A stretch of 64,000 nt of DNA from Sphingobacteriales bacterium (lineage in GTDB: Bacteria; Bacteroidota; Bacteroidia; UKL13-3), in NCBI GenBank assembly GCA_021299635.1, contig JAJTFA010000001.1, forward strand, positions 283,842 through 347,841, in the 5' to 3' direction. Every line of letters begins with the position of its first letter. Position 1 is the stretch's first letter. The translations under genes were made by a program, and so were the position numbers. The notes beneath the pieces were generated by a model that was not told the origin of the DNA, ran no database searches, and was given only the letters and a program-made list of their open reading frames with translations. Positions 31,742 to 34,550 of this stretch are shown piece after piece.

Positions 31742-31745
31742 ATTG

Positions 31746-31880
31746 GGCGTTCCCCTGATGCTTGCGCCATCGCATGCGCCTGCGCAAGCAATATCAGGGT
31801 CGGGCTATGCGTTGCAAGTCCTCGTTCCCTCCGCTCACTGCGGGCTTTCCACTGCTATCCCTAACGCGATTTTTAATAGC
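31746..31880. other. GC-rich highly structured ~135 nt element of unknown function (candidate small RNA or REP-like element)
   Basis: Nested inverted repeats cctgatgcttgcgc / gcgcaagcaatatcagg, gcatgc core, ccgctcactgcgg hairpin; much more GC-rich than surrounding DNA; no credible ORF. Confidence 0.4.
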
Positions 31881-32062: not shown

Positions 32063-32104
32063 TAGCGGTGCGGACGCCCCGAGTACTCGGGGGAACCCGC
32101 GACC
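32063..32104 (-). pseudogene. Degenerate duplicate of tRNA-Asp 3' portion (variable loop to acceptor 3' strand) with 16 nt palindrome ccccgagtactcgggg inserted in T-loop
   Basis: agcggtgcggacg[ccccgagtactcgggg]gaacccgcgacc aligns with tRNA-Asp tggcggtgcggacgggactcgaacccgcgacc; also 50 bp of downstream flank is duplicated. Confidence 0.8.
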
Positions 32105-32105
32105 A

Positions 32106-32357
32106 CTAGATTAAGCCCGAAATCCTACGGTAAAATGACTTGTTCTTTTGAGCCTTTAGAAACTTTTCTCTCCGCAACGCATCTACTTGTGAATCGAAAG
32201 TTTCATGATAAACCAGGCGCCACGGTTTTTTGGCCTTTGTTGATTTGGTTAGACCGGTATTATGCTCCAGTAATCGCCTTTCTAAAGCAGTTGTGTAACC
32301 TATATAAAATGAATCGAAATTATCTGAATAAAGAAGATAAACGAAGTGCATATGCAT
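32106..32357 (-). CDS. Mini GIY-YIG nuclease-family protein (~84 aa; start at MHMHFVYLLYS; upstream part of ORF track entry is read-through into tRNA-Asp)
   Basis: GIY-YIG motif VYLLYSDNFDSFYIGYTTALERRLLEHN..; start codon directly abuts the U-tract of the tRNA-Asp terminator; stop abuts the pseudo-tRNA fragment. Confidence 0.8.
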   Translation of the reverse strand: MHMHFVYLLYSDNFDSFYIGYTTALERRLLEHNTGLTKSTKAKKPWRLVYHETFDSQVDALRREKFLKAQKNKSFYRRISGLI

Positions 32358-32405: not shown

Positions 32406-32482
32406 TGGCGGTGCGGACGGGACTCGAACCCGCGACCCCATGCGTGACAGGCATGTATTCTAACCAGCTGAACTACCGCACC
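32406..32482 (-). tRNA. tRNA-Asp (anticodon GTC), CCA encoded
   Basis: Manual cloverleaf: acceptor ggtgcgg/ccgcacc, D-arm gttc..gaat, anticodon stem catgc/gcatg loop cuGUCac, T-arm gcggg uucgagu cccgu, discriminator G + CCA; 77 nt. Confidence 0.93.
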
Positions 32483-32596: not shown

Positions 32597-33553
32597 ATGG
32601 CCAATTATTTCGATTTCGAAAAACCGATTCAAGAGCTTGAAGAGCAAATAGAAAAAACCAAGCAATTATCACAGAAAAACAAGCTTGACCTGAACGCTAC
32701 CATCAAAGATCTGGAAGCAAAAATGCTGGCTGAAAAAAAACGTATCTACAGTAGCCTTACTGGTTGGCAGCGTGTGCAGATTTCACGCCATCCGGAAAGG
32801 CCATATACACTTGATTACATTGAGCATTGCTTTGAGGACTTTATCGAACAACATGGCGACCGCAATGTAAAGGATGACAAGGCAATTGTTGGTGGTTTTG
32901 CTAAATTGGGCAACCAAACCGTAATGGTTATTGGTCATCAAAAAGGTCGCAATACCAAACAAAGACAGTTGCGCAACTTTGGTATGGCTAACCCTGAAGG
33001 ATATAGAAAGGCCTTGAGGTTAATGAAGCTTGCAGAGAAATTCAATAAGCCTATTATTACCCTTATCGATACACCCGGTGCTTCTCCGGGTTTGGAAGCA
33101 GAAGAACGCGGCCAGGGTGAAGCCATTGCTAAAAATCTGCTAGAGATGTCGGTATTAAAAGTTCCTGTAATCTGTATCGTAATTGGTGAAGGTGCTTCAG
33201 GAGGTGCTTTGGGGATTGGTGTGGGTGATAAAGTGCTGATGTTGGAGAATACGTGGTATTCGGTAATATCTCCTGAGTCCTGCTCATCGATACTTTGGCG
33301 CAGTTGGGAGCACAAGGAAAAAGCTGCAGAAGCACTCAAGTTAACCGCACCGGATATGCTCAAAAACGGATTAATTGATGGTGTAATACCTGAACCTTTG
33401 GGCGGTGCTCACAATGACACGAACGAGATGTATTCGCGCATAAAAGACGAGCTTACCAAGGTTTTGAACGATTTATCTAAACTGGATTCAGAAAAATTGA
33501 TAGAACAACGCATTGCCAAGTTTTCGGCAATGGGTGCATTTACAGAAACTTAA
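32597..33553 (+). CDS. accA: Acetyl-CoA carboxylase carboxyltransferase alpha subunit
   Basis: 318 aa; crotonase-fold CT-alpha motifs ([21 protein letters not shown]). Confidence 0.93.
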
Positions 33554-33557
33554 TAAA

Positions 33558-33578
33558 AAAAGCCCCTTCGGGGCTTTA
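33558..33578. terminator. Bidirectional hairpin terminator (accA on + ; GIY-YIG/pseudo-tRNA on -)
   Basis: aaaaaaagccccttcggggcttt: 6 bp GC stem, A-run one side T-run other. Confidence 0.75.
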
Positions 33579-33700
33579 GTGGAGGATAACGGAGTCGAAT
33601 CCCGAAACAGTGCCTTTTGAAAAGGCATACTGTTTCGAGGACCCTCGAAAAATTAAGAAATGCAAGCATTTCTATTTTTCGGGGCCGATGACCTCATGAA
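33576..33700 (-). pseudogene. Duplicate of tRNA-Ala 3' portion split by an 85 nt multi-hairpin insertion in the T-loop
   Basis: tttagtggaggataacggagtcgaa [tcccgaaacag...tttcgggg] ccgatgacctc matches intact tRNA-Ala tttagtggaggataacggagtcgaaccgatgacctc exactly outside the insertion. Confidence 0.85.
33600..33684. other. 85 nt structured insertion element: outer stem cccgaaa/tttcggg enclosing three hairpins
   Basis: hairpins aaacagtgcctttt/aaaaggcatactgttt, ttcgagg/ccctcgaa, agaaatgc/gcatttct; closes on itself; located exactly at T-loop position of the pseudo-tRNA. Confidence 0.6.
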
Positions 33701-33956
33701 ATTTAAATCCATTCTTAAGACAAAAATCATTTTGTCTGGCTCTTGATTTTAAGTTTTTGAGTTTACGCTCCATACTCAAAGCTTCAGTTCTGGATTGCAC
33801 TGCAAGAGAAGCAAATAAAACCCATGGCACCGCAGTTTTAGTTGATTGGTTTTTACCTGAATTGTGTTTTCTTATTCTTTCAGTTAAATCAGCTGTCTGG
33901 CCGATGTACCTTTTATCAGTAGAATGGGAATAGATTATGTAAACCCAGTATTTCAT
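33672..33956 (-). CDS. Mini GIY-YIG nuclease-family protein (94 aa), paralog of 32106-32357
   Basis: MKYWVYIIYSHSTDKRYIGQTADLTERIRKHN GIY-YIG motif; ~40% identical to the first copy; start codon 5 nt after tRNA-Ala terminator U-tract; last ~9 codons are encoded by the insertion end plus tRNA-derived ccgatgacctc. Confidence 0.8.
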   Translation of the reverse strand: MKYWVYIIYSHSTDKRYIGQTADLTERIRKHNSGKNQSTKTAVPWVLFASLAVQSRTEALSMERKLKNLKSRARQNDFCLKNGFKFHEVIGPEK

Positions 33957-33961
33957 TAATG

Positions 33962-33982
33962 AAAAAGGCCCAATGGGCCTTT
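33962..33982 (-). terminator. Intrinsic terminator immediately after tRNA-Ala
   Basis: aggcccaatgggcct 6 bp GC stem followed by uuuuu on minus-strand RNA. Confidence 0.75.
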
Positions 33983-33984
33983 AG

Positions 33985-34141
<157 letters not shown>

Positions 34142-34225
34142 AATTTTTTTTCTTCACTGATGACCTTCCCGATTTCATCGGGACGCTCTAGCCATCCCGA
34201 TTATGATCGGGAGAACTAATCCCCC
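34142..34225 (-). repeat. Pseudo-tRNA unit 2 (near-identical tandem copy of unit 1; D-loop hairpin tcccgatcataatcggga)
   Basis: ~95% identical to unit 1 over 83-84 bp, head-to-tail. Confidence 0.85.
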
Positions 34226-34237
34226 TTGGGGAGGCGG

Positions 34238-34267
34238 CAAATATATGAAGTAAGTTTTATTGTGCAA
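34238..34267 (-). promoter_or_regulatory. Bacteroidota sigma-A type promoter (TTG-N19-TATATTTG) upstream of pseudo-tRNA units and tRNA-Ala
   Basis: minus strand TTGcacaataaaacttacttcaTATATTTG ending 12 nt before pseudo-tRNA unit 2; same architecture as tRNA-Asp promoter. Confidence 0.5.
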
Positions 34268-34550
34268 ATTTAAACAGCACAATAATAAGCCCGTAAATAA
34301 GCGTAGATAGAATGATACCTCTGGCTATATAAAGCTTATCCTTGTTTAAAAACAGATAGAATAATCCCAGGTTTATTACTGCACATAAGCTCAACAAGGG
34401 TGATAATAGTTTTTTTGAAATGGCAAGGTCTAAAAATTCCATAAGCCCGCTGTGCCTGAATTCTGATAGGTAGAATCCAAGCGCACCCAGTAGTGGTCCG
34501 ATTAAACCTACAATAATTCCAATAGCTATATGATCTTTAATGTTGCGCAT
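34257..34550 (-). CDS. Small membrane protein (97 aa, 3 predicted TM), hypothetical
   Basis: hydrophobic segments; overlaps surE stop region; no known motif. Confidence 0.5.
   Translation of the reverse strand: MRNIKDHIAIGIIVGLIGPLLGALGFYLSEFRHSGLMEFLDLAISKKLLSPLLSLCAVINLGLFYLFLNKDKLYIARGIILSTLIYGLIIVLFKFAQ

Follow-up and report, generated by a model that had tools for sequence, protein, structure and literature searches.

The DNA analysed here, referred to as the window, is a stretch of 64 kb from contig JAJTFA010000001.1 of a Sphingobacteriales bacterium. Read on the minus strand, the locus in question begins with an intact tRNA-Ala gene and continues with a terminator hairpin, a small gene for a 94-aa protein of the GIY-YIG nuclease family, a displaced copy of the tRNA 3' segment, and another terminator (Table 1). 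The displaced copy is split by an 85-nt palindromic insert, termed the double-hairpin (DH) element in the following, which is the subject of this study. Upstream of the intact tRNA-Ala, on the same strand, lie two 84-nt repeats. In each of them, one TCCCGAT..ATCGGGA hairpin occupies the D loop, another takes the place of the anticodon arm, and the sequence is truncated at the T stem. Hairpins of this type had been recognised in an initial annotation made from the sequence alone; four are located at 34083-34212, against about 0.01 expected by chance. A second cassette of like layout is found 1.3 kb away and comprises tRNA-Asp, an 83-aa GIY-YIG open reading frame (ORF), and a tRNA-Asp 3' fragment, with the ORF located between the two tRNA sequences. 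The 16-nt palindrome of this fragment had been correctly placed in a T loop, but its position is only roughly equivalent to that of the DH, as it replaces tRNA positions 57-62, lies 3 nt deeper in the T loop, and goes along with a 6-nt deletion. The CCCGA/TCGGG core is indeed common to all these palindromic elements, and perfect CCCGA..TCGGG hairpins in the window are confined to the two GIY-YIG cassettes. A second copy of the DH itself was not detected in the window by blastn-short or motif patterns.

Table 1. Positions of the DH insert and of the features of the two tRNA-linked GIY-YIG cassettes in the window. MFE, minimum free energy structure.
Feature	Position	Strand	Basis and remarks
85-nt DH insert	33600-33684		Direct repeats D2 and D16 on either side
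Hairpin A, TCC-CGAAACAG...CTGTTTCG-A-GGA	33600-33641	read on +	MFE, consensus fold, covariation; bulged A at 33638
Hairpin B, CCC-T-CGAAAAAT...ATTTTTCG-GGG	33642-33684	read on +	MFE, consensus fold, covariation; bulged T at 33645
Intact tRNA-Ala(GGC), source of the duplicated segments	33984-34058	-	ARAGORN; Rfam tRNA, 59.7 bits
Copy of tRNA-Ala positions 54-76 (T loop and the 3' strands of T stem and acceptor)	33580-33599	-	20/20 identical to 33985-34004
Copy of the tRNA-Ala variable loop with the 5' strand of the T stem (GAGGTCATCGG)	33685-33695	-	Repeat D16
94-aa single-domain GIY-YIG ORF	33672-33956	-	ORF list; Pfam PF01541, E 6e-15
Terminator-like hairpin after the tRNA fragment, common to the accA end	33557-33579		Part of D2; compensatory differences versus 33962-33983
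Two 84-nt tandem repeats, tRNA-Ala 5' parts	34054-34221	-	Repeat D1, 96% identity
Intact tRNA-Asp(GTC), head of the second cassette	32406-32482	-	ARAGORN, Rfam
Second GIY-YIG ORF, 83 aa from an internal ATG	32106-32357	-	Pfam, E 2.3e-15; 38% identical to the first
tRNA-Asp 3' fragment	32065-32104	-	Repeat D10; T-loop positions 57-62 replaced by the 16-nt palindrome CCCCGAGTACTCGGGG at 32077-32092

The borders of the insert follow from two direct repeats located by a repeat finder, D2 (33557-33599 = 33962-34004) and D16 (33685-33698 = 34005-34018). In the real tRNA-Ala(GGC) gene the two directly adjoin each other. Thus, the 85 nt interrupt the tRNA copy exactly, with no base duplicated or lost, and the initial description of a strongly structured insert at this site was accurate. 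Read on the tRNA strand, the break separates the 5' strand of the T stem (ATCGG) from the T loop (TTCGA), which corresponds to G53|T54. The DH of the window forms the distal junction, where the cassette meets the displaced 3' end of the tRNA. The last codons of the GIY-YIG ORF run through the tRNA fragment, where the segment 33685-33695 provides codons for E-V-I-G, and the stop codon (33672-33674) lies within hairpin B. The tRNA fragment and the hairpin's initial bases together supply the codons for the C-terminus EVIGPEK (33672-33695); a 65%-identical homolog has a like ending, QEVIGPEKLQ.

Both strands of the insert form stable folds, with -40.2 kcal/mol (z -6.55) for the plus strand and -43.6 kcal/mol (z -7.70) for the minus strand, and in neither case was any of 200 dinucleotide shuffles as stable. 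According to the MFE and the comparative data, the element consists of two long hairpins side by side, each of which is interrupted by a single bulged base at a distance of 3 bp from its foot. Whichever strand is read, a bulged A resides in the 3' arm of the first hairpin and a bulged T in the 5' arm of the second. The initial annotation had drawn a self-closing topology instead, in which an outer stem (cccgaaa/tttcgggg) encloses three inner hairpins. In an alignment of 28 relatives with a pairwise similarity of at most 80% (A3), however, the outer and central helices of that model have 0 compensatory changes, and every variant breaks the pair (for example, 9/28 at pair 2-120 and 17/27 at pair 9-113). 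The four-stem fold was therefore rejected. The supposed outer stem and the ttcgagg/ccctcgaa helix are alternative pairings only, which arise because the CCCGAAA/TTTCGGG motif is repeated.

Covariation across copies, which the initial annotation had proposed as a check, is pronounced in the two adjacent hairpins. Applied to A3, RNAalifold recovers both hairpins; 14 of the 27 pairs show compensatory changes, 95.5% of the cells are paired, and double-sided changes number 108 versus 29 in shuffles. The covariation score of 0.364 (versus 0.092 shuffled) was reached by none of 500 shuffles and is far above those of all slid registers. The foot pair 63-120, which lies outside the search pattern, is CG in 19 sequences, GC in seven, and UA and AU in one each; it is never broken. 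G.U combinations account for only about 7 of 731 cells in A3, and nearly all stem changes lead from one Watson-Crick pair to another. Among at least 172 distinct DH sequences the foot motif is fixed, and stem depths 9-11 contain three to four Watson-Crick pair types with 91-100% pairing. The feet of the DH are thus conserved as TCCCGA(AA)/(TT)TCGGGA with one bulge per hairpin, and the inner stems vary if pairing is kept. The element is real, non-random, and conserved.

The GIY-YIG proteins of the window are bare catalytic domains. PF01541 spans almost the entire 94-aa and 83-aa ORFs, and the catalytic-motif residues Y6, Y17, G19, R27, H31, and E63 are invariant in the GIY-YIG alignment (A2). 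The 94-aa protein has exact matches on 21 contigs. At nine orthologous loci the identical protein is accompanied by the identical insert, except for two hairpin-tip positions in L006 (L-numbers denote related loci from other genomes and metagenomes). A word-indexed protein search with this protein retrieved two clusters only, and relatives were gathered by DNA-level scans. At L010 and L011, which stem from other metagenomes, a 65%-identical protein is encoded beside tRNA-Ala in a like arrangement with a homologous insert of 83 nt. The feet of this insert are conserved, its inner stems are changed yet paired, and the whole cassette is present twice in tandem. DH homologs were found at these two loci, at L013, L018, L032, L039, L040, and L134, and at others.

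A scan with the GIY-YIG alignment, limited to one genome per species, extended the class to 79 loci. Most belong to Bacteroidota, including Bacteroidales/Marinilabiliales, Saprospiraceae, Lewinellaceae, Cytophagales, and Flavobacteriales, and a few to metagenome-assembled genomes of other phyla. A tRNA gene on the same strand occurs within 300 nt in 56 of the 68 assessable loci, 50 times upstream and six times downstream, and at least 13 isotypes are represented. In Eudoraea and others (L063, L064, L066, L071, L079) the GIY-YIG gene precedes tRNA-Asp by about 25 nt, a polarity opposite to that in the window. The cassettes are amplified in tandem at 14 loci. The largest array, in Algoriphagus halophytocola (L060:827-3646), follows tRNA-Asn and comprises 7.1 units of 397 bp with 97% identity, each unit starting at the exact junction of the hairpin with tRNA position 44. 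Other arrays are located after tRNA-His (L040:2020-3316; 3.1 units of 415 bp, 99% identity) and, in Croceivirga, after tRNA-Leu (L056:1463-2832; four cassette copies).

A copy of the tRNA 3' part usually comes after the ORF, and alignment to the cognate tRNAs revealed three states of this copy. One lacks an insert and is taken up with the interpretation below. In another, a lone TCCCGA..TCGGGA hairpin replaces the anticodon arm (L045, L053, L060, L062, L070, L083, L089, and others). In the remaining state, a DH is placed between the T-stem 5' strand and TTCGA, as in tRNA-Ala (L010, L012, L013), tRNA-His (L022, L032, L039, L040), tRNA-Leu (L024, L037, L038, L056), and tRNA-Gly (L031). In a few loci (L015, L016, L076, L084) the DH lies inside the T loop. 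Its second hairpin is either of a TCC-T-CGA type or of a TGCTGAC..GTCAGCA type. In the GIY-selected loci and the window, perfect CCCGA..TCGGG hairpins reach 0.78/kb within 300 nt of GIY domains versus 0.022/kb elsewhere, an enrichment of about 36-fold, and 12 control cores gave almost none. TCCCGA is also the commonest hairpin foot beside GIY domains (31/114). An origin of the hairpin core as an inside-out version of the local T stem was considered and rejected, since the core stays TCCCGA irrespective of the T-stem sequence of the host tRNA.

The DH forms a family that extends well beyond these cassettes and is described by the motif T-CCCGAAA...TTTCG-A-GGA | T-(C/G)C-T-CGAAA...TTTCGG-(G/C)A. 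A pattern scan of metagenome contigs (CCCGAAA-N-TTTCGAGGNTNCNCGAAA-N-TTTCGG) retrieved at least 120 loci, and copies are present in several orders of Bacteroidota. The insert is therefore far from a lone occurrence without homologs. Near-identical copies were observed on several contigs of one sample, and a housekeeping protein encoded beside one dispersed copy has its nearest named relatives in Bacteroidales/Bacteroidota. A miniature palindromic element, as initially proposed, agrees with the many structure-conserved homologs at varied loci and with one related strain that lacks a copy; the mobility also suggested for it would be one reading of this pattern. Among 2.9 million viral contigs the DH had 0 matches, and a phage origin was discarded. 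Searches against Rfam returned only tRNAs, both at the gathering threshold and at E<=10 on 33500-34300, and also for 15 related loci. Among the matches listed, 35 of 128 DH copies lie within 600 nt of a tRNA and a further group of only 8 is defined by a GIY-YIG domain within that distance; the remaining ones occupy unrelated intergenic spacers, often within arrays of 7-10-nt tandem repeats and sometimes doubled. Clustering of 450 neighbouring ORFs revealed no recurrent transposase or other gene family beside the copies, except GIY-YIG.

Some of the dispersed copies illustrate the variability of these spacers. The DH is flanked on both sides by 7-10-nt repeats (GGTCATTGAT, GGTTAAT, CAAAACT, and others) at L162:1080-1330, L094:1080-1390, and L116:7360-7500, and hairpin blocks sometimes occur several in a row, resembling clusters of bacterial interspersed mosaic elements (BIMEs), with doublets in L094 and L162. 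The spacer between ygeW and a nitroreductase gene contains a DH and a heptamer array in L116 (7353-7503). In L211 (2395-2672), whose YgeW is 95% identical, it contains a DH, an array, and an extra inverted-repeat insert of about 125 nt, and neither DH nor array is present in the more distant, 83%-identical ortholog L214 (2389-2465). Small TCCCGAA..TTCGGGA hairpins are nested in the DH tip, or replace part of it, at L109:84-178, L124:1119-1212, L184:4178-4278, L097, L112, and L126. This nesting suggests that DH tips may be insertion targets themselves.

The insertion sites were mapped by rejoining the flanks of each copy and aligning them to the neighbouring tRNA. Among the matches listed, 51 of 145 physical DH copies are at defined tRNA positions, which fall into two groups. 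One group has the DH at linear position 19-21, in the D loop after G18G19 (G19|U20), and consists of 5' fragments upstream of an intact tRNA. A local GIY gene is missing from most of these D-loop copies, for instance from L168 with its two units in tandem, but some do have one, such as L187, where a fragment, the GIY-YIG gene, and tRNA-Pro follow one another. The other group has the DH at linear position 54 (canonical 53|54) and consists of 3' fragments downstream of a tRNA, with a GIY gene present in every case. The tRNA hosts are always non-functional partial copies, and all tRNA-mapped insertions are exact and lack a target duplication. In flanks outside tRNA sequences, purine|pyrimidine is only weakly preferred, and a GTCAT-like motif is absent. 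The T loop, initially suggested as the target of the element, is thus one of its sites, but the D loop (19|20) and many intergenic sites unrelated to tRNA are used as well. Upstream of a tRNA-Met (L111:4050-4300), a TCCCGAT hairpin in a T-arm fragment is followed by a D-loop DH fragment and then by short partial duplications of the D arm.

The closest precedent for this arrangement is provided by the Ssn nucleases and their hairpin repeats, known as NTS and SRM (Chenal et al., Nat Commun 2025, PMC11893778). The SsnA protein, a single GIY-YIG domain of 94 aa, binds its hairpin repeat, CGTCATTCCCGCG..CGCGGGAATC, solely in the form of single-stranded DNA (ssDNA) and cuts a few nucleotides upstream; Ssn enzymes are inactive on double-stranded DNA (dsDNA) and RNA, and the core of the repeat is TTCCCGCG/CGCGGGAA (PMC11893778). 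Besides flanking the ssn genes, the repeat is scattered in hundreds of further copies, an arrangement that the authors liken to REP/RAYT, and catalytic mutants of SsnA are those of Y6, Y17, and E64 (PMC11893778). The window protein has the same length, and its Y6, Y17, and E63 correspond to these positions. Similar to the Ssn systems, hairpin repeats with a (T)TCCCG...CGGGA(A) core, a conserved foot, and a free loop are found beside the gene and also dispersed, and the GIY-YIG genes of the window are flanked by such repeats (33600-33684, 34083-34212, 32077-32092). Unlike the Ssn repeats, the DH is a symmetric pair of long hairpins with a conserved bulge in each and has no oriented GTCAT flank. 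Its copies reside at fixed positions of partial tRNA copies, the gene is tied to a tRNA gene, and the hosts are Bacteroidota, whereas the Ssn paper mentions neither tRNA nor Bacteroidetes (PMC11893778). Literature searches on tRNA-linked GIY-YIG cassettes and on hairpin repeats of Bacteroidetes brought up no description of such cassettes with hairpin-split tRNA copies. A tblastn search for a plasmid-borne relative of the protein with possible canonical NTS repeats yielded nothing. The DH thus resembles known Ssn- and REP-like hairpin repeats, and what is unusual is its tie to the loops of tRNA genes.

The insert is most likely the ssDNA recognition site of the nuclease; an intron, an RNA, or a repair scar is less likely. 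More precisely, it may represent a DNA-level DH repeat of Bacteroidota that the neighbouring, Ssn-like GIY-YIG nuclease would recognise in single-stranded form, a reading to which we assign a probability of roughly 55%. Singling out the GIY-YIG protein as the candidate to be assayed with the palindrome was well aimed in this respect. In analogy to Ssn and NTS, each strand could fold into two hairpins whenever the DNA becomes single-stranded, during replication, transformation, or cruciform extrusion. The adjacent GIY-YIG protein would bind the hairpin foot and cut the single strand nearby, and repair or recombination of the break via the flanking tRNA homology might duplicate or move the cassette and spread hairpin copies. 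Selection would remove hits in functional tRNA, leaving as survivors the copies in dispensable partial tRNA duplicates or intergenic DNA. Such a course of events would account for three observations, namely the arrays of tandem units, the occurrence of partial tRNA duplicates both before and after tRNA genes, and the copies that are non-autonomous. A more far-reaching version is tentative and less probable than the recognition site alone. The DH and the bare GIY-YIG domain would then form a hairpin-guided mobile system acting on ssDNA, of a kind not described before, a GIY-YIG counterpart of REP/RAYT or IS200/IS605, which homes to the D loop (19|20) and the T loop (53|54) of tRNA genes, spares the tRNA by carrying or duplicating the missing part, amplifies in tandem, and sheds non-autonomous hairpins across the genome.

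Several observations weigh against a function of the DH as the site of the nuclease. At L014, L085, and L086 the tRNA copy contains no insert, so the hairpin is dispensable for retention of the cassette. Among the matches listed, only 8 of 128 DH copies lie within 600 nt of a GIY-YIG domain; the local link is therefore limited to the T-loop subclass, and most copies would need the enzyme in trans. The published degenerate SRM consensus of Ssn-related repeats, HGTCWYN(0-2)YYVSBRHN(0-5)WNVSBRGN(0-2)RNCYNB, matched nowhere (0 hits) when about 400 kb from GIY-YIG loci and the window were scanned, and a conserved oriented 5' flank like the GTCAT of NTS was seen in 3 of 165 cases only. Moreover, the best solved relative of the window protein is the UPF0213 protein BH0048 (1zg2, E 7e-8).

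The main rival to the nuclease site is an independent selfish palindrome, comparable to REP elements or to MITEs, miniature transposable elements with inverted repeats, and unrelated to the GIY-YIG protein, which would have been spread by some other enzyme or by slippage or template switching of the host and piled up in dispensable DNA, including dead tRNA fragments. It would account for the 120 of 128 pattern-found copies (among the matches listed) that have no GIY-YIG domain within 600 nt, many of them in spacers with 7-10-nt repeats, for the D-loop copies upstream of tRNA genes, which mostly lack a local GIY gene, for the variable presence of the element in orthologous spacers, and for the smaller hairpins nested within DH tips. 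We nevertheless regard this scenario as rather unlikely. GIY-YIG is the only gene family that recurs beside the copies, CCCGA hairpins are enriched 36-fold beside GIY genes, a GIY gene accompanies every 53|54 copy, and the hairpin sits exactly at the junction of cassette and tRNA in many independent isotypes. Junction positions as fixed as these would not result from passive accumulation. Alternatively, the GIY-YIG protein might act as a homing endonuclease whose recognition site is double-stranded tRNA DNA near the T or D loop, and the hairpin would confer immunity by splitting the site in the duplicate, which would keep the end of the cassette from being cleaved anew. The two hot spots coincide with conserved tRNA sequences, namely GG|TT (D loop) and GG|TTCGA (T loop), the range of at least 13 isotypes is consistent with recognition of universal tRNA features, and GIY-YIG homing endonucleases beside tRNA genes are known, for example SegB of phages. 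However, the adjacent intact tRNA retains an uninterrupted site, and therefore nothing is protected by the insert. The protein is a bare catalytic domain of 83-94 aa without a DNA-binding domain, the DH also occurs at many sites outside tRNAs, and mere disruption of a site needs no conserved motif, bulges, or covarying stems. Immunity thus appears clearly less probable than an independent palindrome.

A structured RNA had also been considered initially and is disfavoured to a still greater degree. The insert could serve as a stabiliser or terminator in the 3' untranslated region of the GIY-YIG mRNA, or be part of a processed small RNA or tRNA-like element. The tRNA or GIY promoter probably drives transcription through the region, the stop codon of the ORF lies within the hairpin, and the hairpins are very stable and covarying. 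Yet both strands share an identical architecture, either orientation to the tRNA is found among the copies (as is evident from the asymmetric, TGC-type ones), which also occur in unrelated spacers, and G.U pairs are nearly absent, with changes from one Watson-Crick pair to another. On these grounds, a hairpin or cruciform at the DNA level is more likely than a functional RNA. Furthermore, no Rfam family was found even at E<=10, a separate terminator hairpin with a T-run comes after the insert, and the tRNA fragment lacks its entire 5' half, so that a tRNA-like fold is impossible. A one-off repair scar or random palindromic indel, the first part of which had been among the initial proposals, would fit the single copy in the 64-kb window, but it was rejected in view of hundreds of homologous copies that share motif and architecture across various tRNA isotypes and bacterial orders.

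Other known elements share single traits with the DH and its cassette. Like REP/BIME repeats, REPIN-RAYT systems, and the hairpin ends of IS200/IS605, DH copies are dispersed extragenic palindromes in doublets or clusters and lack target-site duplications. As in REP/RAYT and IS200/IS605, a small nuclease gene, here the putative cognate enzyme, is flanked by the repeat, and the stems contain bulges. Such stem imperfections are typical of ssDNA hairpins recognised by proteins. Unlike RAYT, the enzyme would be a GIY-YIG hydrolase and not a Y1 transposase of the HUH type, none of which was seen among the 450 ORFs near the copies, and REP elements differ further in that they lack the hot spots in tRNA D and T loops and the partial tRNA duplications. 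A classical MITE is not indicated either, as the flanks rejoin to the exact tRNA sequence without a duplicated or missing base. Paquin and colleagues are said to have described, in 2000, mitochondrial double-hairpin elements in Allomyces and other fungi. These are short mobile elements that likewise consist of two adjacent hairpins and are located between genes or in or beside structural RNA genes, but they are organellar, and the likeness drawn here is one of architecture. We know of no tie of these elements to a single-domain GIY-YIG gene or to tRNA loop positions.

The succession of an intact tRNA, foreign DNA, and a displaced tRNA 3' copy also recalls islands and prophages that integrate into tRNA genes (attL/attR). 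However, the unit is only about 400 bp long, is amplified in tandem, and has a displaced copy split by a hairpin block. The 405-bp interval holds nothing but the 94-aa GIY-YIG ORF and contains no tyrosine or serine recombinase that could act as an integrase. In phages T4 and T6, the gene of the free-standing GIY-YIG endonuclease SegB adjoins tRNA genes, as in the window, and a segmental amplification of a tRNA region driven by the nuclease is on record (PMC13096335). Seg proteins differ in that they possess DNA-binding domains, cut dsDNA, are borne by phages, and are not accompanied by hairpin repeats. The ORFs of the window leave no room for the second domain of an I-TevI- or Seg-type homing endonuclease, and the model for endonucleases of group I introns scored 21 bits against a cut-off of 56. 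An intron, whether of group I or of the archaeal bulge-helix-bulge type, is incompatible with a host that is only a 3' fragment and with the site 53|54, and no Rfam intron matched at E<=10. The exclusion of introns of groups I and II in the initial annotation is in line with the lack of an Rfam match.

If the hairpin is the site of the nuclease, the site-specific ssDNA nucleases of the Ssn type would extend to Bacteroidota and be tied to tRNA genes for the first time. The double hairpin with its TCCCGA foot and bulge would be a new and well-defined substrate, and enzyme and site might serve as a pair in ssDNA tools. It would also explain the many genes annotated as 'GIY-YIG nuclease family protein' and the odd partial tRNA copies beside tRNA genes of Bacteroidota, which confuse tRNA annotation, and would offer a tractable case of tiny selfish cassettes that colonise essential genes without killing them. 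With fixed insertion points at G19|U20 and G53|T54 and with tandem arrays that reach seven units, the mechanism lends itself to direct testing.

Two further features of the window lie next to the cassettes. The terminators after the tRNA (33962-33983) and after the fragment (33557-33579) differ by compensatory changes, GGCCC/GGGCC versus GCCCC/GGGGC, and in some strains (L002, L006, L007) the GGCCC form is the outer one, a hint that the two copies may exchange sequence. After the lpdA terminator, a GC-rich and strongly self-pairing segment of about 130 nt (31745-31870) had no match in Rfam. It is 80% conserved at L059:2985-3112, where it is again located just past a tRNA-Asp/GIY-YIG cassette.

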